A DNA stretch of 64,000 nt, taken from assembly GCA_017619375.1 (NCBI GenBank), contig JAFZSL010000002.1:23679-87678 (forward strand). Reading direction: 5' to 3'. Below are positions 22,985 through 34,236 of this stretch, piece by piece. The stretch's first letter is position 1, and every line of letters starts with the position of its first letter. Source of the stretch: Prevotella sp. (GTDB taxonomy: Bacteria > Bacteroidota > Bacteroidia > Bacteroidales > Bacteroidaceae). Made by a program: the position numbers and the translations under genes. The notes below the pieces were generated by a model that saw only the letters and a list, made by a program, of their open reading frames with translations, was not told the origin of the DNA and ran no database searches.

Positions 22985-25240
22985 TCACTGGTTGGTGGCT
23001 TCCTGCTCTTCAAACAGGTCTTTCGGACCGTGGTCGATGTGGGTCACGCGGTCGTTGAGTTCGGCGAGTTTGCCACTGTTCCAGCGGTCGGTGGTGCCTA
23101 CAAGATAGCCAGTAATGCGCTGCAGTTTGTCGATGTTGGTCGAGCCGCATTTCGGGCAGGTTGTCAAATTGTCGTCGGCGTTCTCGTAGCCGCAGTCCAT
23201 GCAGCGGTTGCGGTTGTGGTTGACGGAGCCATACCCCATGTCGTATTGGTCCATCATGTCCACCACGCTCATGATGACCTGCGGGTTGTGGGTGGCGTCG
23301 CCGTCGATTTCAACATAGAAGATGTGTCCGCCGCGTGTGAGGTTGTGATAGGGAGCCTCCACCTCGGCCTTGTGGCGTGCGGAGCATTTGTAGTATACCG
23401 GCACGTGGTTGGAGTTGGTGTAGTAGTCGCGGTCGGTGACACCGGGGATGACGCCGAACTCCTTGCGGTCTTTCTTGGTGAACTTTCCCGCCAGTCCCTC
23501 TGCAGGAGTGGCGAGTACGGAATAGTTGTGATGGTAGCGCTCGCAGAAATCGTTGATTCTGTCGCGCATGTAGGTGACAATCTTCAGTCCCAGTTCCTGC
23601 GACTCGGCACTTTCCCCATGGTGCTTCCCGGTGAGGGCGACGAGGCACTCTGCCAAACCGATGAACCCGATGCCGAGGGTTCCTTGGTTGATGACGCTCT
23701 TCACGGTGTCTGTCGGTCCCAGTTTGTCGGCTCCTATCCAGAGGCTTTTCATCACGAGCGGGAACTGTTTGGCAAATGCCGTCTGCTGGAACTGGAAACG
23801 TTCGTCGAGTTGCTTGGCCGTGATTTCCAGCACATGGTCGAGTTTTGCGAAGAACATTCCGATGCGTTTTTGTTCATCCTTTTCTTCCATGCACTCGATG
23901 GCGAGTTTCACGATGTTGATGGTGGAGAAGGAGAGGTTGCCACGCCCGATGGAGGTCTTCGGTCCGAAGCGGTTCTCGAAGACGCGTGTGCGGCATCCCA
24001 TGGTGGCCACCTCGTGCAGGTAACGCTCGGGGTCGTCGGCCTTCCATTCATCGGTCTTGTTGAACGAGGCGTCGAGGTTCAGGAAGTTGGGGAAGAACCT
24101 TCGTGCCGTCACCTTGCAAGCGAGCGTGTAAAGGTCGAAGTTGCGGTCTCCCGGCAGGTAGTTGACCCCGCGTTTCTTCTTCCATATCTGAATGGGGAAA
24201 ATGGCAGTCTCGCCATTGCCCACTCCCTCGTAGGTGGAGAGAAGAATCTCTCTCATGATGCATCGTCCCTCGGCGGAGGTGTCCGTCCCGTAGTTGATGG
24301 AAGAGAACACCACCTGGTTGCCGCCACGCGAGTGGATGGTGTTCATATTGTGTATGAAGGCCTCCATCGCCTGGTGCACGCGTCCCACGGTCTTGTTGAC
24401 GGCGTGCTGCTGGGCACGTTCCTTCCCTGTCAAGCCATCGAGAGGTTTCTTGATATAGTCGATAAGAGGTTCATCATAAAGGTCTTTGTAACTCTCGCCG
24501 TTGAGTTCCTCAAGGCTTTTCAGTTCCTCAATATATGTCATGCGCACATAAGGCGCCAGGTAGAAGTCGAAGGCGGGGATGGCTTGGCCGCCGTGCATCT
24601 CGTTCTGGGCGCACTCCATCGAGATGCATGCCAGTACGGAGGCCGTCTCGATGCGCTTGGCGGGACGCGAGGCACCATGTCCAGCAATGAAGCCGCAGGT
24701 GAGGATATGGTCGAGCGGATGCTGTACGCAGGTGAGCGACTTGGTGGGGTAATAGTCTTTGTCGTGGATATGCAAATAGTTGTGCTCCACGGCTTCGCGA
24801 CTTTCTTCCGAGAGGAGGTAGTCGTCGACGAAAGGTTTTGTGGTCTCAGAGGCGAACTTCATCATCATTCCTGCCGGAGTGTCGGCATTCATGTTGGCAT
24901 TCTCACGGGTGACATCGTTGTTCTTGACGTTCACGATGTCGAGGAAGACGTCTCTGGTCTTTGCCTTGCGGGCGATGGAGCGTTGGTTGCGGTAGGCGAT
25001 GAATTTCTGTGCCACGTCCTTGCGGCTCGACTTCATCAGTTCTATCTCCACCATGTCCTGGATTTGCTCCACGGTCATCTGGCTCTCGCCTCGTTGTGCG
25101 ATGTAGTCGGTGATTTTATATAAGAGACGCTCGTCCTCACCCTTGTCTGTGTGAAGCATGGCCTTGCGGATGGCAGCCATGATTTTTTGCTCGTTGAAGC
25201 CTACGATGCGTCCGTCGCGCTTTACTACGGTCTGAATCAT
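22985..25240 (-). CDS. nrdD: Anaerobic (class III) ribonucleoside-triphosphate reductase
   Basis: N-terminal ATP cone VVKRDGRIVGFNEQKI; LHIHDKDYY; MGCRTR; GRGNLSFSTIN; ATPAEGL; CMDC..CPKC zinc ribbon; glycyl-radical motif RITGYLVG. Confidence 0.98.
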   Translation of the reverse strand: MIQTVVKRDGRIVGFNEQKIMAAIRKAMLHTDKGEDERLLYKITDYIAQRGESQMTVEQIQDMVEIELMKSSRKDVAQKFIAYRNQRSIARKAKTRDVFLDIVNVKNNDVTRENANMNADTPAGMMMKFASETTKPFVDDYLLSEESREAVEHNYLHIHDKDYYPTKSLTCVQHPLDHILTCGFIAGHGASRPAKRIETASVLACISMECAQNEMHGGQAIPAFDFYLAPYVRMTYIEELKSLEELNGESYKDLYDEPLIDYIKKPLDGLTGKERAQQHAVNKTVGRVHQAMEAFIHNMNTIHSRGGNQVVFSSINYGTDTSAEGRCIMREILLSTYEGVGNGETAIFPIQIWKKKRGVNYLPGDRNFDLYTLACKVTARRFFPNFLNLDASFNKTDEWKADDPERYLHEVATMGCRTRVFENRFGPKTSIGRGNLSFSTINIVKLAIECMEEKDEQKRIGMFFAKLDHVLEITAKQLDERFQFQQTAFAKQFPLVMKSLWIGADKLGPTDTVKSVINQGTLGIGFIGLAECLVALTGKHHGESAESQELGLKIVTYMRDRINDFCERYHHNYSVLATPAEGLAGKFTKKDRKEFGVIPGVTDRDYYTNSNHVPVYYKCSARHKAEVEAPYHNLTRGGHIFYVEIDGDATHNPQVIMSVVDMMDQYDMGYGSVNHNRNRCMDCGYENADDNLTTCPKCGSTNIDKLQRITGYLVGTTDRWNSGKLAELNDRVTHIDHGPKDLFEEQEATNQ

Positions 25241-25563: not shown

Positions 25564-25585
25564 TAACATTGTAAAAAAAAATAAT

Positions 25586-26251
25586 ATGGCAAAAGTGAAT
25601 GTGGATAAGAAAAGAAGGGATTTGGAGCAGACGAAGAATTACGACCATCGTGTAAGGCTCTACGAAGACGGCAAGTATCATTGGTCGTACGACCTCAACA
25701 TGCTGAAAAACCCTGCGGTGCTGATTGATGTGTTCAAGGCGCTGGGCATGACGGTGGCCATCGTGGGGTTCATCATCGTTGTGATACAGGCTTGTGAGAA
25801 TGGGATACATGCGGAAGAAATGATGTTTGCTCTGAAGTTGATAGGTATCATGGTGGCAATCATGTTCGTGCTCAGCATATTGGGTTACTTGATTTATGCA
25901 GCGATGTCGGGTTGGACGTATACGGCGCTTTTCACCATGGATGATAATGGCGTGGTGCATGAACAGTCTCCTCGTGCGGATAAATTGGCGAAACGCATCG
26001 GTTGCCTCACCATATTTGTAGGGCTGCTGACACGCAAGCCTGGTGTGGCGGGGACGGGCATGTTGGCGGCAAGCCGGTCGACGATGTCCTCCAACTTCTC
26101 CTCTGTCAAGACGGTGAAGGCGATACGGCGGATGAACACCATCAAGGTGAATGAGCGATTTGAGAAAAATCGCGTGTATGTCAACGATGAAGACTTCGAT
26201 TTCGTCTATGACTATATCGCCTCTCATTGCCTGAATGCGAAAATCAAGTGA
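25586..26251 (+). CDS. Hypothetical membrane protein
   Basis: Two clear TM segments (VFKALGMTVAIVGFIIVVI; LIGIMVAIMFVLSILGYLIYA) and a soluble C-terminal region; promoter just upstream. Start at ATG 25586 preferred. Confidence 0.78.
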   Translation: MAKVNVDKKRRDLEQTKNYDHRVRLYEDGKYHWSYDLNMLKNPAVLIDVFKALGMTVAIVGFIIVVIQACENGIHAEEMMFALKLIGIMVAIMFVLSILGYLIYAAMSGWTYTALFTMDDNGVVHEQSPRADKLAKRIGCLTIFVGLLTRKPGVAGTGMLAASRSTMSSNFSSVKTVKAIRRMNTIKVNERFEKNRVYVNDEDFDFVYDYIASHCLNAKIK

Positions 26252-26257
26252 GGATAT

Positions 26258-26297
26258 CAGGAGGTCTTAGGAGCAAGTAGGAGGTCTTAAGTGGTCA
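26258..26297 (+). repeat. 10-bp-periodic TAGGAG array
   Basis: CAGGAGGTCT-TAGGAGCAAG-TAGGAGGTCT-TAAGTGGTCA; TAGGAGCAAGTAGGA is identical to 14833-14847. Confidence 0.75.
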
Positions 26298-26390
26298 AAA
26301 AGGGGTGTTTTTGAAAAATTAACACTCAATACACCCCGTATGCATCTGATTATTTATATTTTTGCATCTTAATTGCATATTTTAAAAGGT

Positions 26391-26879
26391 ATGAAGAAGA
26401 TTTTCCTACTGCTTACCATAGCCTTTTCGTGCATGGCAAGCCATATGAGTGCCCAACTTCCCGCCATCACCCTCAAGACGATGGAGGGCAAGACCATACG
26501 CACCGACACCCTGTCTAACGAAGGCAAACCGTTCATCATCGATTTCTTTGCCACGTGGTGCAAGCCCTGCAACCGCGAACTCGACGCCATCAGTGAGGTG
26601 TATGAGGATTGGCAGGACGAGACGGGGGTGAAGATCTATGCCATCTCGGTGGACCAGGCCCAGAACATCAACAAGGTGAAACCGCTTGTCGACAACCATG
26701 GTTGGACTTATGACGTGTTGCTTGACACCAACAGCGAGTTTCAGAAAGCTCTTGGCATACAGATGATTCCCGCCACCTTCGTGCTCGATGGCAACGGCAA
26801 GATCGTATATCGCCATGTCGGCTACAACGAGGGCGAAGAGCAAGAACTCATCGAAAAGGTTCGTGAACTTGTGAAATAG
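26391..26879 (+). CDS. TlpA/ResA-like thiol-disulfide oxidoreductase
   Basis: Signal peptide; LPAITLKT; IIDFFATWCKPCNRE; IPATFVLDGNGKI. Start at ATG 26391 preferred. Confidence 0.92.
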   Translation: MKKIFLLLTIAFSCMASHMSAQLPAITLKTMEGKTIRTDTLSNEGKPFIIDFFATWCKPCNRELDAISEVYEDWQDETGVKIYAISVDQAQNINKVKPLVDNHGWTYDVLLDTNSEFQKALGIQMIPATFVLDGNGKIVYRHVGYNEGEEQELIEKVRELVK

Positions 26880-26881
26880 GC

Positions 26882-28525
26882 ATGAGGACGTTTTTTGCAT
26901 TGTTGGTCGTCATGTTCGCCATTCCCATGGTGATGACGGCCCAGAACGAGGGCGGCAACGTCGTGACCGTCACAGGAAGCATCCAGAGCGATGTGCTTTT
27001 CCCCCAAGAGGATGAGGACATCGGTGCAATGGAATCCGACCACAAAGTGCTCACCAACAGTTATGCCGACGTCCATGTCATCAGCAAGCACGTGGATGCC
27101 GGAGCCAGAGTGGAGTTCATGCGCTTCCCACTCCCCGGCTATGAGAACGACTTCAAGGGATGGGGTCTCGCCAACATCTACGCCAAGATGCACACCGACA
27201 AGTTGGAGGTGACACTCGGCAACTTCTACGAGCAGTTTGGCAGCGGTTTCATCCTACGCACCTATGAAGAGCGCAGCCTCGGCATCGACAACTCCCTGCT
27301 TGGCGCCCGCGTGACGGCGAAGCCTGTGAAGGGTGTCATGGTGAAGGGCCTTGCCGGTTGGCAGCGACATTACTGGAGTTACAATGACGCCCTCATCTCC
27401 GGAGGCGACCTTCAACTCAGCATCGACCAATGGTCGAAAGCCCTTCAAGACAACGGCACCTACCTGTCGCTTGGAGCGTCGATGGTGAACAAGCATGAGC
27501 GTACAGAGGATGTCATGTGGGACTACAACCATCTCCTCAATCTCCCCGAGAACGTCAACGCCTTCGACTTCAGGGCCAGCCTCCAGAAAGGCAACGTCAG
27601 CGTGCTGGCAGAATATGCCTTCAAGACACAAGACCCTTCTTCCGACAATAAGTTCATCTACCGCAGGGGCCATGTGGCCATGCTCTCCGCCTCCTATTCC
27701 AAGCGCGGCATGAGCATCCTGCTGCAAGCCAAGCGCAGTGACAACATGTCTTTTCGGTCGAAACGTATGGAAAGAGGCACCTCCTCATTCATCAACCACC
27801 TGCCGGCCTTCACCCTCGACCACACCTACGCCCTTGCCGCATTGTACCCCTATGCCACACAACCCGATGGAGAGTGGGCCTATCAGGCAGAGTTGGGCTA
27901 CAACTTCAAGCGCAACACCTTCCTTGGAGGGAAATACGGCACCAACGTGAAAGTGAACTTCTCCCATGTCCACAGCATCGACAAGAACGTCATCCCCATC
28001 GGCGCCCCTCACGATACCAACGGCTATGGGTCGGCGTTCTGGAAATGGGGTGACGGCATGTATTACCAAGACTTCGACATCCAGGTGGACAAGCGCATCA
28101 CCAAGGACTTCAAACTTAACCTGATGTACATGAACCAGTTCTACAACAAGACGGTGATCGAGGGTGAGGGAGGCATGGTTCATTCCGACATCTTCGTCGC
28201 CGACGGGAAGTACAAGTTCAACAACAAGGTCACGCTCAGGGGAGAGTTGCAGTATCTCGCCACCAAGGACGACGAGGGCGACTGGGCTTTCGCGCTACTG
28301 GAACTCTCCGTGCTGCCCCGCCTGATGTTCACCGTCTCCGACATGTACAACTGCGGTGAGACCGACCTCCACTATTACCAGGGGTTGGTTACCTTCACCT
28401 ACGGCGCCCATCGCCTTCAGGCCGGTTACGGACGCACCCGCGCCGGTTACAATTGTTCCGGAGGTGTCTGTCGATACATACCAGCCACCAAGGGTTTCAC
28501 TTTGTCGTACAACTACAACTTCTGA
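26882..28525 (+). CDS. Probable outer-membrane beta-barrel (DUF6029-like)
   Basis: Signal peptide; amphipathic beta-strands; GNFYEQFGSGFILRTYEERSLGIDNS; YNCSGGVCRYIPATKGFTLSYNYNF with terminal Phe; sits between TlpA and Omp28 genes. Confidence 0.75.
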   Translation: MRTFFALLVVMFAIPMVMTAQNEGGNVVTVTGSIQSDVLFPQEDEDIGAMESDHKVLTNSYADVHVISKHVDAGARVEFMRFPLPGYENDFKGWGLANIYAKMHTDKLEVTLGNFYEQFGSGFILRTYEERSLGIDNSLLGARVTAKPVKGVMVKGLAGWQRHYWSYNDALISGGDLQLSIDQWSKALQDNGTYLSLGASMVNKHERTEDVMWDYNHLLNLPENVNAFDFRASLQKGNVSVLAEYAFKTQDPSSDNKFIYRRGHVAMLSASYSKRGMSILLQAKRSDNMSFRSKRMERGTSSFINHLPAFTLDHTYALAALYPYATQPDGEWAYQAELGYNFKRNTFLGGKYGTNVKVNFSHVHSIDKNVIPIGAPHDTNGYGSAFWKWGDGMYYQDFDIQVDKRITKDFKLNLMYMNQFYNKTVIEGEGGMVHSDIFVADGKYKFNNKVTLRGELQYLATKDDEGDWAFALLELSVLPRLMFTVSDMYNCGETDLHYYQGLVTFTYGAHRLQAGYGRTRAGYNCSGGVCRYIPATKGFTLSYNYNF

Positions 28526-28531
28526 TCCGAC

Positions 28532-29332
28532 ATGCAACCACTCAGATATCTTGTTTTACCTCTTCTCTCACTTCTCTTCCTCACCGCATGCAGCGAAATC
28601 GACGAGGACGAGCGGCTTATTTATGTCAAGCCCACCCCCGTGGGGCGCAACGTCCTTATAGAGGATTTCACCGGGCAGCGGTGTGTGAACTGTCCCACCG
28701 CCACGTCGGAGATAGAGAAACTGCAGGAATATTACGGCGAAGACCATGTCATCGCCGTCGGCATACACAGCGGCCCCTTTGCCAAATCGGTACGTGGCGT
28801 ACCTTATCCGCTCTACACGGAAATAGGGGATGAGTATTATAACTATTGGAAAGTCGAGTCACAACCCATGGGCGTCATCAACCGTACGGGCACCTGCGAC
28901 TACCTGTCTTGGGGCGCCAAGGTGCGAGACGACCTGTCCAAGAACGCACAGGTCTCGCTTGAAGCATCCTGCGATTACGACAAGGCGAGTCGCAACGCCA
29001 CCATCACGGTGAAAGGGAATGGTGTTGAAGGCAGCGTTTCGGGTTCTTTGCAGGTATGGCTCACCGAAGACAACATCACCGACTTCCAACTCATGCCCGA
29101 TGGCAGTAGGAACGATGCTTATGTTCACAACCATGTGCTGCGTTGTGCCGTGAACGGCACCTGGGGTGTGTCTTTCCATGTCGGTGAAGCCGAACAATTC
29201 ATTTATGATTTCACTCAGATTCTCGATGATGGCTGGGTGCCTGAAAACATGCACGTCGTGGCTTTCGTCTATGATGACACTGGTGTCTATCAGGTGACCA
29301 CGTGCCCGGTGGTTCCGCGCCTTGAGTGGTGA
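28532..29332 (+). CDS. Omp28-family outer-membrane lipoprotein
   Basis: Lipobox LFLTAC; VLIEDFTGQRCVNCP; VIAVGIHSG; YVHNHVLR; HVVAFVYD. Confidence 0.88.
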   Translation: MQPLRYLVLPLLSLLFLTACSEIDEDERLIYVKPTPVGRNVLIEDFTGQRCVNCPTATSEIEKLQEYYGEDHVIAVGIHSGPFAKSVRGVPYPLYTEIGDEYYNYWKVESQPMGVINRTGTCDYLSWGAKVRDDLSKNAQVSLEASCDYDKASRNATITVKGNGVEGSVSGSLQVWLTEDNITDFQLMPDGSRNDAYVHNHVLRCAVNGTWGVSFHVGEAEQFIYDFTQILDDGWVPENMHVVAFVYDDTGVYQVTTCPVVPRLEW

Positions 29333-29412
29333 TGGCTTCGCGGGTTCGGCTGGTCCGATTCGTCTAATGGGTCTGAAAACCAAAAAAAGAAAACAACCAA
29401 ACATTATATTAT

Positions 29413-31197
29413 ATGAGAAAAATTTTACTTTTTGCAGCCTTGTTGGCATGGGTGGGCGTTGCAAGCGCACACACCGTGGCCGTGGGCTATTCCAACGGCC
29501 AGGTGGCCGAGACGAGTCCTTACAAGATTTCGGGCAAGGGGCATGTGAGCGCCGCCGTTTACATCACCCCCGAAGTATATGAGAAATACGCCCAATGCGA
29601 TTTCATGGGCATCAGTGTGGGATTGGCATCCGCCAAGTATTGCGACTCGCTCACCGTATGGGTGCGTGAGACACTCGACGGCGAGGACATCGTCACGAAG
29701 ACCATCAAGAGAAGCAACAACGATGCCATCGACCAAGGGTGGAACAACATCTTGTTTGACACGCCCATGCCTTTGGAGGGGAAGAGTTTCTACATCGGCT
29801 ACACCTATCACCAGTCCTACAAGGACGGTGCCGTGTCGGTGGTGGGAGAACCCAGGCCCAACACTTCGTACCTCAAGCGTGGAAACCTGGCCAGTTGGGA
29901 GGACATCTCCTCTGAGGGTGTTCTCAGTATCGAACTGCTCGTAGGTGGCGACAACATGCCTCCCTACGACCTGAAAGTCGTTTCCGCAACCGCCACGCGT
30001 AGTGGAGACGGCGTGGTCACCGTTGTGACCAACATCATCAACAATGGTTCAAAGGATGTTACGGAATACGACCTCACCTTCTCGGCTGAAGGATATAATT
30101 ATGTGAAAACGATCAGCACGCCGATTGCCAGCGGTGCCAACACCAAGGTGTCCACCATTCTTTATGACGTACCCGAAGCGGTGGGATTCGACCTTCCTTT
30201 GACGGTGACCGCCACACGCATCTCCGATGGCGAGGACTATTTCCCAGAGGACAACAGCACCGTCGCCTCCATGCGCATACCACGCAATGTCGTGGTGGAG
30301 GAGTTCACCGGCACCGGCTGCGGTTGGTGTCCCCGCGGCCTCGTGGGCATGGACAAGATGCATGAGCGATATGGCGAGCGCTTCGTGGGTATCGGCATCC
30401 ATCAGTACAACAGCAGCGACCCCATGTACCCCACCAGGTACAAGAACCTGGGCTTTGATGGTGCTCCCGAGTGCAAGATAGACAGGAGTTACCTCACCGA
30501 CCCCTATTATGGCAAAGGGAATGACATCTGCGATGACTTCGAGGCAGAGATGGAAGTGCCCACCTACATCTCCGTGATGGTCTCCGCCACTTTCAACGCC
30601 GACCGCACGGCAGTGGACATTACCGCCGATTTGAGTTCCCAGGCAGCCTTGAACGGGCTTTCCGTGGGCTTCGTGCTCACCGCCGATAGCGTCACGGGAA
30701 CGGAAAGAGCATGGAAACAGGCCAATTACTATTACCAATACCAACCCTCGCAATTGCCTGACGACTTGAAGCAGTTTGGCAATGGCGGCGTGAACGGAGG
30801 AAGCTCTTTCTTCTGGAGTTTCAACGACGTGGCCATTGGCACCTATTATGAAGGTGGCAAGTATGAGATGTCGATAGGCAACATCGGCAAACGTGAGACA
30901 AAGACCGTCACCGCCACCGTGGACATGCCCACGAAGGCTGCGTTGGTGAATGCTCTCCGCTACGACCTCATCACTGCCAACGTCCTCGTGTTGGATGATA
31001 AAGGCGTCGTGGCCAATGCCGCCAAAGTCAGGGTGGTGGATCCCACCGACGTGAAAGAGTTGGATGTCAAGCCTGCTGGCAACCTTCGTGAGGTGGCCCG
31101 TTATACGCTGGACGGCAGGATGATTTCCACTCCCCAGAAAGGTATCAACATCGTTAAGTTGTCAGATGGTTCCACCATCAAGGTCAATGTGAAATAG
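29413..31197 (+). CDS. Omp28-related thioredoxin-fold protein with T9SS C-terminal tail
   Basis: Signal peptide; VVVEEFTGTGCGWCPRG; VGIGIH; C-terminus ARYTLDGRMISTPQKGINIVKLSDGSTIKVNVK. Confidence 0.85.
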   Translation: MRKILLFAALLAWVGVASAHTVAVGYSNGQVAETSPYKISGKGHVSAAVYITPEVYEKYAQCDFMGISVGLASAKYCDSLTVWVRETLDGEDIVTKTIKRSNNDAIDQGWNNILFDTPMPLEGKSFYIGYTYHQSYKDGAVSVVGEPRPNTSYLKRGNLASWEDISSEGVLSIELLVGGDNMPPYDLKVVSATATRSGDGVVTVVTNIINNGSKDVTEYDLTFSAEGYNYVKTISTPIASGANTKVSTILYDVPEAVGFDLPLTVTATRISDGEDYFPEDNSTVASMRIPRNVVVEEFTGTGCGWCPRGLVGMDKMHERYGERFVGIGIHQYNSSDPMYPTRYKNLGFDGAPECKIDRSYLTDPYYGKGNDICDDFEAEMEVPTYISVMVSATFNADRTAVDITADLSSQAALNGLSVGFVLTADSVTGTERAWKQANYYYQYQPSQLPDDLKQFGNGGVNGGSSFFWSFNDVAIGTYYEGGKYEMSIGNIGKRETKTVTATVDMPTKAALVNALRYDLITANVLVLDDKGVVANAAKVRVVDPTDVKELDVKPAGNLREVARYTLDGRMISTPQKGINIVKLSDGSTIKVNVK

Positions 31198-31203
31198 AAG
31201 ACT

Positions 31204-34200
31204 ATGCTTAAGACCATCAAGACCATTGTTTTGACCTGCGCCGCCATGGCTTCGCTGGTTGCCACCGGAAGGATGGTTTCCTATTCTTCCGATGGCGATA
31301 TCATCATACCCCCTTATGAGGAGGACTGGCAGGGCGAAGGGGTCTTCGACCGATACGTGGTCGTAGACTGCAATGAGGACAAGCGTACTTGGACTTTCAG
31401 CAACGGACAGGTGCGTTACCATTATTCCTCCGTCAATGCTGCCGATGACTGGCTCCTCACCCCTGAAATCCTCTTGGAATCGGGCAAGGTGTATGAATTT
31501 CTGGCCACTGCCTTCGCTGTCAGCGACTCTTACACGGAGCGCATAGAGATTTCCCTGGGACAGGGTGTCGACCCAGCATCCTTCACCCAGGTGGTGGTGC
31601 CTCCTACCGATTTGAATGGTTCCACACCCCAGGAACTGCCAGCCACCTTCACTGTCAGCGAGGGTGGTTACTATCGCATAGGCTTTCACGCCATCTCCGA
31701 AAAGAACCATTTCTTCCTCACCCTCCAGGGGTGGTCTTTGGACGTCCTGGTGGAGAGTGGCGCACCCTCTGTTGTCACAGATTTACAAGTGGTGCCTGGC
31801 GAGAAGGGCGCCCGCATGGCCACGTTGAGCTTCATCGCTCCGGCGACGTCGGTGTCAGGCGACTCCTTGACCGAACTTGACCGCATAGAGGTGAGTAGCA
31901 AAGGTGGTTTGCTGGCCACCATCGACCATCCCGTTCCCGGGGAGGCTCAGGAAATAGAGGTGACGGTGGAGGAAGATGGCTATCACGACTTCGACGTAGT
32001 GGCATGCAATGCCATCGGCATCGGCATGCCGGCCCATGCCAACGTTTATGTTGGTTGCGATGTTCCCATCCTTCAAGGTGTCGTGGGATGTGTCGACCTG
32101 CGTGATGGCAAGATGGCATGCTCTTGGAGCACCGCCGGCGAAGTGGGCGAGCATGGTGGGTATGTCGATTCCACCGCTGTGGAATACCGCCTCTATCCCC
32201 TTGATGCCAGTGGGTCACGTGCAGAGTTGCTTGCCACGACGACTGAAACCAGTTGCGTGGTCGACTATTCCTCTTTTGACACTGGCGCCGCCCAAGTATT
32301 GCAAGTGGAGGTGGAGCCGGTGTTTGCAGAGAAGGAAGGTGTTGCCATAGGAGGGAGGCTCATCATAGGAAAACCCTCCATATTGCCCTATCACCAATCG
32401 TTTGATTCCTCATCGCAAGGCGTGTTCTGGTGGCAGGAGGCCGATGGTGGACAATGGCTTGCCAGCCAGATGGCCGCCGACGCCGATGGCGCCTGTCTCC
32501 GCTTCGTTGCCGACGACTCTATCGCCAGAGGCAAGGCTTGCAGTGAGAAATTGACGCTGAAGGGGGCTTCGCGACCCATGCTGCTCTTCCAACACAACAC
32601 CAAGGCGGGTCAGAATATCCGCCTGCATGTGTTTGCTGACCGCCAAGATGCCAACGGCCCCGTGTTGCTCAAGACCATCTTACCCGATGAAGAGAAGAGT
32701 GACAGTTGGGTGCAGGAAGGCATCGATTTGAGCGAATACGTGGAAGAGGATTATATTTTGCTGACCTTCATCGTCGAGGCAGACGAGAAGGGCGCAGTAT
32801 GTCGCATTGATGACATCCAGGTCAGGGACGTGCCCGATTGCGACTTGGAATTGGTGTCGGTGCTGCTTCCCAAGCAGGTGAAGGTGGGTCATGAGGAAAT
32901 GGCTGTTGTCACCGTGCGCAACAACGGTCTGTTGTCGGTGGGAGATGATGCCTATGCGGTGGAATTCACCGTGGGCGACAGTACTGTTACTGTTGGCACC
33001 AAAGAGTTGGCGCCATTCACCGGGGTCACCACCTATACCTTTACGTTCACACCTTCCATCTTCGACGAGGTGTTGGTCGAGGTGAGCGCCAAGGTGGTGT
33101 GTTCGGAAGACCTTGAGGAAGGCAATAATGTCGCTACTGCTGTGGCAAGTGTCAAACAGCCGTCGGTGGCTCGCATGGTCAATCTGACGGCGGAGGCTTA
33201 TGGCTCCGATGTGTCTTTGACATGGAACCTGCCTAATGGCTCTCTCAGCGAGGGCATCTACACCGAGGACTTCGAGGACACCGAGATATTCGGCAATCTG
33301 TCGACTGGTGGCGTCACCGCCGACAACCATTGGGGAGAACTCGGCCAATGGAAACTATATGATGGCAACGGCACCCCTGTCCGCATAGTGGAAGTAAACG
33401 ACTCCGACAGCATAGGGTCTGATGCTCCGAAGGCGTTCCAGGTGTTCAACGCCTTCGAGAACGGTCTCGACATGACCGATTACGACGTAGTTGAGTCGAT
33501 GGCTTCATATTCTGGCGAGCAGATGTTGCTGGCGATGCCTCCTGCCGACGGACAACCGAGCGACAAGTGGCTCATCTCGCCGTTGCTCAGCGGTGGCGAG
33601 CAGACCATCAGCCTCTTTGTCAGTGCTACGGCCAACGACCCGGAGACCACGTTCGAGGTGTGGTACACCACTACGAACACGCCTGACGACTTGGAGCATT
33701 ATCAATTGGCTTACAATGGAGTGGCATCCACCATGGACTGGAACGAGGTGAGGTTGGAACTGCCTGTCGGCGTACGTTATTTCGCCATTCGCAGCACAGC
33801 TTCCGGCGCAGCTGGCTTCATGTTGGATGATATCACCTTCACGGCCTCTCCCTCTTCGAAGATGCCTAAGGCGGCCCGTCCTACGCTCACGGGATGCCAC
33901 GTCTATCGCGACCAGGTGCTCATCGCCCAATTGGATGCCGGTGTCGTGGAATATGTCGACAACGAGGTGGTGGATGGACAGCACACCTATTATGTCACAG
34001 CCGTCTATGGTGAGACTGAGTCGGGACTTTCCAATCCCGCCGTCGTGGATGTGGATATCACCGCCATACCCGATGTGGCCGCTTCGGCTGCCCGTTTCGG
34101 TGATGACATCATGGTCTATGACCTCCGCGGAGTCCTGCTGGGCCATGGCCGTGATTGTTTCAACTCCCAGCCGAGAGGGGTCTACATCATCAAGGACATG

Positions 34201-34236
34201 CACACGGGTCGTGTGGCTCGTGTGTCAAGGAAATAA
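31204..34236 (+). CDS. T9SS-secreted adhesin-like protein (cleaved-adhesin/choice-of-anchor J, FN3 and CARDB-like domains)
   Basis: ADDWLLTPEI; SDKWLISPLLSGGEQTISL; FMLDDITF; GCHVYRD...YYVTAVYGETESGLSN; C-terminus VYDLRGVLLG...GVYIIKD. Confidence 0.8.
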   Translation: MLKTIKTIVLTCAAMASLVATGRMVSYSSDGDIIIPPYEEDWQGEGVFDRYVVVDCNEDKRTWTFSNGQVRYHYSSVNAADDWLLTPEILLESGKVYEFLATAFAVSDSYTERIEISLGQGVDPASFTQVVVPPTDLNGSTPQELPATFTVSEGGYYRIGFHAISEKNHFFLTLQGWSLDVLVESGAPSVVTDLQVVPGEKGARMATLSFIAPATSVSGDSLTELDRIEVSSKGGLLATIDHPVPGEAQEIEVTVEEDGYHDFDVVACNAIGIGMPAHANVYVGCDVPILQGVVGCVDLRDGKMACSWSTAGEVGEHGGYVDSTAVEYRLYPLDASGSRAELLATTTETSCVVDYSSFDTGAAQVLQVEVEPVFAEKEGVAIGGRLIIGKPSILPYHQSFDSSSQGVFWWQEADGGQWLASQMAADADGACLRFVADDSIARGKACSEKLTLKGASRPMLLFQHNTKAGQNIRLHVFADRQDANGPVLLKTILPDEEKSDSWVQEGIDLSEYVEEDYILLTFIVEADEKGAVCRIDDIQVRDVPDCDLELVSVLLPKQVKVGHEEMAVVTVRNNGLLSVGDDAYAVEFTVGDSTVTVGTKELAPFTGVTTYTFTFTPSIFDEVLVEVSAKVVCSEDLEEGNNVATAVASVKQPSVARMVNLTAEAYGSDVSLTWNLPNGSLSEGIYTEDFEDTEIFGNLSTGGVTADNHWGELGQWKLYDGNGTPVRIVEVNDSDSIGSDAPKAFQVFNAFENGLDMTDYDVVESMASYSGEQMLLAMPPADGQPSDKWLISPLLSGGEQTISLFVSATANDPETTFEVWYTTTNTPDDLEHYQLAYNGVASTMDWNEVRLELPVGVRYFAIRSTASGAAGFMLDDITFTASPSSKMPKAARPTLTGCHVYRDQVLIAQLDAGVVEYVDNEVVDGQHTYYVTAVYGETESGLSNPAVVDVDITAIPDVAASAARFGDDIMVYDLRGVLLGHGRDCFNSQPRGVYIIKDMHTGRVARVSRK

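Follow-up and report, generated by a model that had tools for sequence, protein, structure and literature searches.

In a 64,000-nucleotide window of a contig from a Prevotella sp., a rumen organism judging by the names of near-identical proteins and loci, we analysed a run of co-oriented genes encoding a TlpA-like thioredoxin-fold protein, a predicted outer-membrane β-barrel of the DUF6029 family and an Omp28 lipoprotein, followed by the gene for a 594-residue multidomain protein. Together, the first three very likely act as a single unit whose role is thiol-disulfide chemistry at the outer membrane and on the cell surface, and they probably carry this chemistry from the periplasm to the surface. 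Their arrangement in Bacteroidota genomes is conserved far beyond chance, and the thiol-redox interpretation of the locus is, overall, well supported. An earlier note on this DNA, made from the sequence alone, had suggested that these proteins pass reducing equivalents or a thiophilic metal from the periplasm, by way of a cysteine pair in the barrel, to partners outside the cell, as an outer-membrane analogue of DsbD-type relays. The genes and the sites considered here are as follows.

26391–26879 (+): TlpA/ResA-like thioredoxin-fold protein, 162 residues (open reading frame list, Pfam).
26559–26570 (+): active site C57-K-P-C60 of the TlpA-like protein, within FATWCKPCxREL (invariance in homologues).
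26882–28525 (+): DUF6029 barrel, 547 residues, after a gap of 2 nucleotides (PF19494).
28445–28480 (+): predicted barrel hairpin, residues 522–533, with C525-S-G-G-V-C530 at its tip (DSSP layout of the model and conservation).
28532–29332 (+): Omp28 lipoprotein, 266 residues, after a gap of 6 nucleotides (NF033782, PF11551).
28682–28693 (+): active-site-like C51-V-N-C54 of Omp28, followed by proline (alignment to C48/C51 of HBP35).
29413–31197 (+): multidomain surface-type protein, 594 residues, after a gap of 80 nucleotides (hhalign to the Omp28 profile).
30319–30330 (+): C303-G-W-C306 of the 594-residue protein, EEFTGTGCGWCPRG (conservation in homologues).

These four genes, with gaps of 2, 6 and 80 nucleotides, are followed by a fifth one, and all five lie on the plus strand within positions 26391–34236. 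The coordinates and the spacing are those that the earlier note had given for an operon, and all of the motifs that it had named were found: FFATWCKPCNREL (WCKPC) in the TlpA-like protein, YNCSGGVCRY in the barrel, GQRCVNCP in the lipoprotein and GTGCGWCP in the 594-residue protein. The interval that it had assigned to the system, 26391–31197, contains the four genes as described and ends one gene early, as the fifth gene (31204–34236) starts only 6 nucleotides further on.

We searched 301 evenly drawn Bacteroidota genomes for the barrel family. DUF6029 was present in 61 of them, nearly always as one copy per genome, and 40 deeper barrel loci were taken from the genomes that have it; 80 named Bacteroidales loci were found with an 11-sequence alignment. 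The TlpA, barrel and Omp28 genes were contiguous and co-oriented in 79 of the 80 Bacteroidales loci, the 80th being broken by a contig end. In the 40 deeper loci, TlpA-like and Omp28-like genes usually flank the barrel gene, and all-against-all clustering of the neighbours gave only three conserved clusters, namely TlpA, the barrel and the Omp28-like protein. The synteny across Bacteroidota that the earlier note had proposed to check thus holds, in nearly every Bacteroidales locus and in most of the deeper ones. About 50 of the 80 Bacteroidales loci also have at least one long gene nearby for a protein resembling HBP35, a surface protein of Porphyromonas gingivalis that is described below.

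The genes also co-occur at the level of whole genomes. Among the 301 genomes, 54 had both the barrel and Omp28 and 229 had neither, while 7 had the barrel only and 11 had weak Omp28-like matches only (65 with Omp28 in total). The odds ratio for the co-occurrence was 161 (Fisher p = 1.5e-40, uncorrected for phylogeny). Where the TlpA gene is unlinked to the barrel gene, a single orthologue of the cassette type was present elsewhere in the genome (7 of 7 such genomes; E = 1e-36 to 1e-51). In the same order or class, 20 genomes without the barrel were searched, and cassette-type TlpA was absent from all of them, the best match having an E-value of 1e-17. Bacteroides thetaiotaomicron, used as a control, had no DUF6029.

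The TlpA-like protein carries a signal-peptidase-I-type signal, ending in MSA before Q, and matches the Pfam families AhpC-TSA (E = 6e-25) and Redoxin (E = 2e-20). In the PDB it matched 2m72 (E = 6e-63, with about 70% identity as read off the printed alignment) and the ResA structure 4nmu (E = 5e-18). The best NCBIfam matches were ResA, StoA and DsbE, each of them below its cut-off (85.9 versus 170 bits for ResA, 76.1 versus 210 bits for StoA and 62.7 versus 123 bits for DsbE/CcmG), and the TlpA model was missed as well (39.3 versus 230 bits). As the protein falls below all of these equivalog cut-offs, it represents a distinct subfamily and none of the named enzymes. A hidden Markov model (HMM) of this subfamily separated the cassette TlpA (249 bits) from its next paralogue in the same genome (92 bits). 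C57, P59 and C60 of the active site, together with D88, P127 (likely the cis-proline) and G148, are invariant across 111 cassette TlpAs.

The Omp28 lipoprotein was assigned to its family by NF033782 (293.6 bits versus a cut-off of 150) and PF11551 (E = 5e-45; 153.7 versus 34.9 bits). It consists of a lipobox (LTA before C20), an acidic stretch (SEIDEDE), a thioredoxin-like N-domain and the Omp28 C-domain. In an alignment of 84 Omp28 lipoproteins, the lipobox cysteine C20, the pair C51 and C54, and P112, R204 and G212 were invariant, and the motif CxNCP occurred in 77 of the 84. At least two Asp or Glu residues were present at positions +2 to +7 in 74 of the 84 lipoproteins, which makes this an acidic stretch resembling an export signal; the surface-export signal of lipoproteins has been defined previously (PMC5080379). 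The family profile matched the Omp28 C-domain of known structure (PDB 2r2c; E = 6e-33) and, over both domains (residues 29–259), HBP35 (PDB 5y1a; E = 8e-8), with FTGQRCVNCP of the lipoprotein placed over FTAEWCGYCP. Weak matches were to thioredoxins, the thioredoxin domain of DipZ and DsbA-like proteins of copper or metal resistance.

HBP35 (PG0616) offers the closest published biochemistry for the partner proteins of the barrel. Like them, it has a thioredoxin-like N-domain with CxxCP followed by an Omp28-type C-domain. It is exported through the T9SS (type IX secretion system), is displayed on the cell surface, binds hemin and aids growth when hemin is scarce (PMC2907840). The recombinant protein reduces insulin faster than Escherichia coli thioredoxin, and a C48S/C51S mutant, altered in the cysteines that align with the Omp28 pair, is inactive (PMC2907840). 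The earlier note's statement that the function of Omp28 proteins is unresolved therefore needs qualifying, since for this member of the family both thioredoxin activity and hemin binding are on record. Studies of HBP35 have treated it as a T9SS cargo on its own, with no link to a TlpA or a barrel described. It also differs from the proteins of the window: the lipoprotein is predicted to be lipid-anchored rather than sorted by a T9SS C-terminal domain (CTD), and the 594-residue protein has two extra N-terminal domains, no His motif and a short tail, which the curated CTD models do not recognise.

The 594-residue protein contains a complete Omp28/HBP35-like module. Its residues 286–541 align to the whole profile made from the 84 Omp28 lipoproteins (hhalign probability 99.4%, E = 2.7e-21), and it matched NF033782 with an E-value of 1.4e-9; a Pfam scan of it gave nothing. 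Ahead of this module are a signal peptide, a jelly-roll domain (residues ~21–178) and a CARDB-like Ig domain (~187–289), and behind it is a tail (~550–594). The AlphaFold2 model, with a predicted local distance difference test score (pLDDT) of 86.7, shows the same order: jelly-roll, Ig-like domain, thioredoxin plus Omp28 module, disordered linker and a three-strand tail. E296, E297, T299, G300, T301, C303, G304, C306, R308 and G309 were invariant among 36 homologues. The source records of some homologues call them ‘hemin-binding protein’, those of others ‘Omp28-related outer membrane protein’. Directly compared, the protein resembles HBP35 5y1a only weakly (E = 0.07–0.29), this being the best phmmer match in the PDB and falling in the region of the CxxC motif. 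A Foldseek search with the model was dominated by GH2 enzymes, which match the jelly-roll and the Ig domain, and a thioredoxin-like DUF1223 protein (2axo) was the sole match to the redox module; this search retrieved neither HBP35 nor a CTD.

The tail of the 594-residue protein behaves like a modular sorting tail, though one of less than standard CTD length. Neither TIGR04183 nor PF18962 matched the isolated tails of the 594-residue protein and of the 1010-residue product of the fifth gene (E ≤ 10), or these tails in a genome-wide search (E ≤ 1), and for this reason we call the tail CTD-like only. The same genome holds at least 10 CTDs recognised by the curated models. An iterated HMM seeded on these CTDs reached the 1010-residue protein's tail in round 2 (E = 2e-5, later 4.5e-8) and that of the 594-residue protein only in round 3 (E = 1.5e-4). 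The profile of the 594-residue family aligns with the C-terminal 50 residues of PDB 8bbl (E = 2.7e-5), possibly a T9SS signal themselves, and the same ~45-residue tail ends unrelated small proteins encoded in neighbouring positions of relatives. Of three CxxC thioredoxin-fold proteins with different targeting, as the earlier note had it, the signal-peptide TlpA, the lipoprotein and the CGWCP module are thus borne out, and the T9SS tail, the weakest point, is only CTD-like.

Thirteen Prevotellaceae relatives (L077–L103) have an extra small gene of 206–285 codons between the Omp28 and the HBP35-like genes. Its product (for example, L087:10569–11255) shares with the 594-residue protein only the short C-terminal tail, and in size and position it is reminiscent of P. 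gingivalis PorA; no such gene is present in the window.

The third component of the module differs among lineages in a manner that is informative about its function. All 7 genomes with the barrel only belong to one family, f29, from which we collected nine loci in nine genomes (L151–L159; for example, L152:5882–9247). The f29 barrel is distant (E ~1e-30 to 1e-35 with an HMM built here) and keeps the cysteine pair as C-T-S-G-I-C, and it is preceded by the cassette TlpA (E = 1e-41 to 1e-45). Downstream of it, in the place of Omp28, are AhpC/TSA-like thioredoxin-fold proteins with CPHC that are unrelated to Omp28, two paralogues of them in 7 of the 9 loci. The four pairs that were read fully each comprise a shorter lipoprotein and a longer protein with a classic T9SS CTD (QNYPNPFNPST ... 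SGIYIYRL ... KRMTLVK). The third component has been replaced non-orthologously, with a CxxC thioredoxin fold and dual surface targeting as the two features kept. In other deep lineages, the Omp28-like gene beside the barrel encodes a signal peptide and a classic T9SS CTD and no lipobox, so that the partner is, depending on the lineage, a lipoprotein, a T9SS cargo or both.

The dual targeting in f29, together with the CTD that takes the place of the lipobox in other lineages, argues that the partner works outside the cell, and Omp28 and its counterparts are predicted from their sorting signals to be surface-exposed. The earlier note's proposal of redox proteins both in the periplasm and at the surface gains support from the acidic-signal lipoprotein or T9SS cargo as the partner, from the exchange of one CxxC protein for another and from the homology of Omp28 to HBP35. 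The f29 replacement and the CTD-bearing partners also suggest that the conserved function is thiol chemistry rather than anything performed by the Omp28 C-domain with its His motif.

This last point bears on the idea that the cysteine pairs and the His motif of Omp28 hand on a ligand, either haem or a thiophilic metal, through the outer membrane, with TlpA preparing the ligand cysteines as for Sco and CoxB in copper delivery. The hemin binding of HBP35 (PMC2907840) is in keeping with it, as is the conserved Y-x-H-x-H motif of Omp28, which aligns with the H204–H206 region of HBP35, a His motif proposed to bind hemin there; the 594-residue family, however, has WSFNDV instead of this motif (hhalign), and the f29 partners lack the Omp28 C-domain altogether. 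Although the Omp28 profile weakly touches the DsbA-like proteins of copper and metal resistance, none of the genes conserved near the module is for metal transport, a metal chaperone or haem uptake, and no CxxCH or Sco-type CxxxC motif was found. The metal relay that the earlier note had offered beside the thiol relay is therefore weakened, since a CxxC in a thioredoxin fold is the only property of the third partner conserved across lineages, and we regard a metal or haem relay as very improbable.

The barrel matched PF19494 over positions 8–538 of the 538 of the model (E = 2e-194; 647.7 bits versus a cut-off of 27). It has a signal-peptidase-I-type signal, ending in MTA before Q, and a C-terminal phenylalanine, F547, that is at least 90% conserved. 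Its AlphaFold2 model (mean pLDDT 94.4, predicted TM-score 0.88) is all-beta with about 24 strands, by a hand count of the DSSP string; short turns at residues 68–70, 105–107, 147–151, 237–238, 275–276, 406–409, 446–449, 478–480 and 508–509 alternate with longer loops. Foldseek returned only generic large barrels, the best being the 24-strand FimD pore (TM-scores 0.49/0.56), followed by matches that include 22-strand TonB-dependent receptors, MtrB (TM-score 0.42) and LptD of LptDE. No specific structural relative (by Foldseek) and no sequence relative of the barrel was found in the PDB.

In the alignment, conservation of the barrel is highest at a Cx4C pair, which lies on the tip of a predicted hairpin. 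C525, G528 and C530 are invariant among 114 barrels of 18–80% identity, the two cysteines accounting for 2 of only 10 invariant columns, and G527, R531 and P534 are at least 90% conserved. The cysteine pair that the earlier note had seen near the C-terminus is thus present, and conserved wherever we looked for it; as it is invariant, the objection that the barrel cysteines might not be conserved falls away. In the model, the hairpin stands between the penultimate strand (510–519) and the last strand (536–546), with its arms at 522–526 and 529–533, breaks at 520–521 and 534–535, and C525 and C530 flanking the tip. Outer-membrane barrels terminate in the periplasm, so the segment that precedes the last strand is in the extracellular register, and the hairpin is predicted, by these topology rules and the model, to be extracellular. 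For the outer-membrane analogue of DsbD-type relays that the earlier note had proposed, a mechanism of alternating access is consequently unlikely, because the pair is predicted to lie at an extracellular hairpin tip and not mid-membrane, although the hairpin may dip into the lumen.

DUF6029 is mentioned in one paper, where it is suggested to be a polysaccharide porin of the Wzi type (PMC9603273). We rejected this assignment, which would call for an 18-strand barrel near OPX or other polysaccharide export genes: the model has about 24 strands, Wzi was absent from the top 50 Foldseek matches, and no polysaccharide genes were conserved around the 40 diverse loci.

The genome of the window encodes one DsbD_TM protein (PF02683, in a 713-residue open frame), unlinked to the module and on another contig, and from its presence we infer that DsbD may keep the TlpA-like protein reduced. 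Neither DsbB nor VKOR was found in the same genome, in searches whose positive controls all worked. Their absence makes a purely DsbA-made structural disulfide less likely, and a reductive pathway in a genome that lacks the usual machinery for structural disulfides modestly favours a functional role of the barrel cysteines.

These points have to be set against an explanation in which Omp28-type proteins dock onto, or are assembled at, the barrel as a platform, comparable to the plug-and-barrel LptD/LptE, with the cysteine pair as a structural disulfide and TlpA acting in biogenesis only, to keep the barrel or Omp28 cysteines reduced during transit or to correct wrong disulfides. We judge it unlikely. 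TlpA/ResA-type proteins such as ResA and CcmG are known maturation factors, structural staples typically take the form of a Cx4C on the tip of a hairpin and LptD is among the generic Foldseek matches, but the genome offers neither DsbB nor VKOR for making such a disulfide. One barrel gene stands beside one partner gene in strict co-inheritance, which speaks for a platform; the sole partner in several lineages, however, is a T9SS cargo with its own export route, and an unrelated thioredoxin fold can replace the partner while TlpA and the cysteine pair stay. Because the partner can be so replaced, it is the CxxC chemistry and not a particular docking fold that is conserved. In addition, the export of surface lipoproteins in Bacteroides has been attributed to the Lpt machinery (preprint, PMC13692018), and B. 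thetaiotaomicron exports such lipoproteins without DUF6029.

A Slam-like lipoprotein translocon was also considered for the barrel and set aside: the partners can be T9SS cargo, B. thetaiotaomicron does without the barrel, and a general Lpt-based route has been reported (PMC13692018).

The interpretation that we put first, tentatively and at somewhat short of an even chance, is that a DsbD-charged TlpA supplies reducing equivalents which reach the surface Omp28/HBP35-type proteins at the barrel. Reducing equivalents would run from cytoplasmic thioredoxin to DsbD and on to TlpA, and the barrel would be the site at which they are handed through the outer membrane to the thioredoxin-fold proteins of the surface. 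Substrates on the surface or outside the cell would in turn have their disulfides reduced or isomerised by these proteins. The hand-over might take place by direct contact of two thioredoxin folds inside a wide lumen, which is conceivable because barrels of this class (FimD, MtrB, LptD) are wide enough for a folded domain, or by way of the Cx4C hairpin; the hairpin as a shuttle is possible, though the less likely of these. In such a scheme the proteins would form a complex and electrons would cross the membrane. It is rather doubtful, at the same level of confidence as for the shuttle, that the trio is a protein-thiol conduit in the full sense, taking up reducing equivalents inside the 24-strand barrel and passing them, directly or through a hinged Cx4C hairpin, to surface thioredoxins anchored by lipid or LPS, which would make it the first known disulfide relay across an outer membrane. 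Three further Omp28/HBP35-like modules are encoded elsewhere in the genome (C21:10536–10940, C2:3582–4256 and C18:183315–183461, in frames of 686, 510 and 1163 residues), so that the single barrel and the single cassette TlpA may serve several surface partners.

Several observations weigh against a reductive relay. The cysteine pair is about one membrane thickness away from periplasmic TlpA, a Cx4C at the tip of an outer-side hairpin is what a structural staple typically looks like, and the long conserved loops of the barrel (116–138 and 288–330) could themselves plug the lumen. Surface exposure of the partners is read from sequence signals, and the T9SS-like tails in the window fail the curated models. 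The partners in f29 carry the DsbA-like CPHC, with which the flow may run in either direction. HBP35 mutants showed no oxidative-stress phenotype in the published study (PMC2907840), and where the habitat is reduced, as in the rumen, ambient thiols could recharge surface thioredoxins, making a relay unnecessary. NCBIfam lists a variant of Omp28 with selenocysteine (NF045500), which would have argued for catalysis; it gave no match in the 301 Bacteroidota genomes, and a six-frame scan of the fetched loci for UxxC or CxxU yielded spurious matches only.

A different use of the same parts would dispense with the relay: the surface thioredoxin-fold protein would capture or reduce an external substrate (cystine, a disulfide-rich peptide or another disulfide-bearing or thiol-reactive small molecule), the substrate would diffuse through the barrel, and TlpA would complete the chemistry in the periplasm. 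The size of the barrel, with its ~24 strands, and the conservation of a redox protein on each side of the membrane suit such a channel; an open 24-strand pore without a plug, however, would be a serious permeability leak, and the module has no conserved association with a transporter, with a TonB-box or plug, or with a periplasmic binding protein. That HBP35 aids growth at scarce hemin (PMC2907840), and that 00502 of Paraprevotella clara, related to Omp28 by its annotation name, recruits trypsin (PMC9477747), would fit the capture of external substrates, but the channel leaves the invariant cysteine pair of the barrel unexplained. We consider it unlikely, on a par with the docking platform and below the thiol relay.

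Some published observations on P. gingivalis touch the module. In this organism PG2175 is listed as a thioredoxin-domain protein, PG2173 as the Omp28 lipoprotein and PG2172 as the T9SS cargo PorA (PMC13744359, PMC9722745), and PG2174 is an uncharacterised vesicle protein (PMC4335976). PDB 2r2c, an Omp28 structure, matches the lipoprotein of the window. The same trio is probably present as PG2175/PG2174/PG2173, with PG2174 as the candidate DUF6029 barrel; PorA stands where the window has the HBP35-like protein, and no function has been published for the trio. In a study of vesicles, Omp28, Q7MT24 (listed as DUF5723) and Q7MT25 (a T9SS CTD protein) were found only in those of H2O2-treated cells (PMC12937337, Table 1). 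Q7MT23 is PG2175 (PMC13744359), and from the order of the accessions Q7MT24 and Q7MT25 may be gene neighbours of Omp28; as support for the module, this vesicle finding is suggestive only.

Among known systems, the DsbD/CcdA pathways to TlpA, ResA or CcmG resemble the proposed scheme in having a periplasmic WCxPC reductase with a cis-proline residue (likely P127 in the TlpA of the window), in a genome that has a DsbD gene, and in their logic, by which a specific client receives reducing equivalents from the other side of a membrane along a chain of cysteine pairs. They differ in that they end in the periplasm and that DsbD has an α-helical inner-membrane domain with its cysteines mid-membrane, whereas here an outer-membrane β-barrel would carry the cysteines on its outer rim; the TlpA of the window, moreover, falls below the NCBIfam cut-offs of the named reductases ResA, DsbE and TlpA. 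The MtrCAB complex of Shewanella (PDB 6r2q) likewise combines, in adjoining genes, a redox protein of the periplasm with a barrel of very large size and a redox lipoprotein at the surface. Its carriers are haem cofactors, with MtrA threaded through the barrel, whereas cysteine pairs would be the carriers here; family scans found no multihaem CxxCH or cytochrome family in the five proteins of the window, and the resemblance of the barrel to MtrB is generic (TM-score 0.42).

Two features next to the module complete the locus.

26357–26364 (+): possible Bacteroidota-type -7 promoter element TATTTTTG, 27 nucleotides upstream of the TlpA start (read from the sequence).
31204–34236 (+): choice-of-anchor-J protein, 1010 residues, with a CTD-like tail, after a gap of 6 nucleotides (NF038128, E = 4e-24).

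The element fits TAnnTTTG, which we take to be the consensus; a sigma-70 scan upstream of the TlpA gene gave nothing specific in the region of TATTTTTG. Short direct repeats, ggaggtcttaggagcaagtaggaggtcttaag, are present at 26258–26297, between the TlpA promoter region and the gene of an upstream membrane protein (222 residues, 25583–26251, plus strand) that has no family match. Further upstream is a 751-residue open frame on the minus strand (22985–25240), which may encode an anaerobic ribonucleotide reductase, as it reads by eye from a C-terminal Cys cluster and a RITGYL motif. Neither of these two upstream genes is conserved with the module. Going by the spacing, the gene of the 1010-residue protein is probably co-transcribed with the preceding genes. 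The protein has weak MAM and CARDB matches and no thioredoxin-family match, and is probably a secreted cargo that stands outside the conserved module: a homologue is close to the module in only 6 of the 80 Bacteroidales loci, directly downstream as here in two of them (L071 and L072).

To our knowledge, all envelope thiol-redox pathways described so far stop in the periplasm, and we know of no prior answer to how surface proteins such as HBP35 stay redox-active outside the cell. The module is a concrete and genetically testable candidate for this missing link from the periplasm to the surface. It is inherited as a unit across Bacteroidota of the gut, the rumen, the mouth and the environment, and it provides a working hypothesis for DUF6029 and Omp28, which are abundant components of vesicles and the outer membrane. 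P. clara 00502, a T9SS protein annotated as ‘Omp28-related’, recruits trypsin to the cell surface and promotes its autolysis and breakdown (PMC9477747); provided that the same CxxC module is present in it, the promoted autolysis could stem from the reduction of trypsin's disulfides. Should the relay prove true, Bacteroidota would possess an enzymatically powered reductase or isomerase outside the cell, with disulfide-rich host or dietary proteins or their own surface proteins as possible targets, and this could bear on the attack of these bacteria on disulfide-rich host proteins (trypsin, IgA and mucins), on haem acquisition and on their tolerance of oxidative stress.

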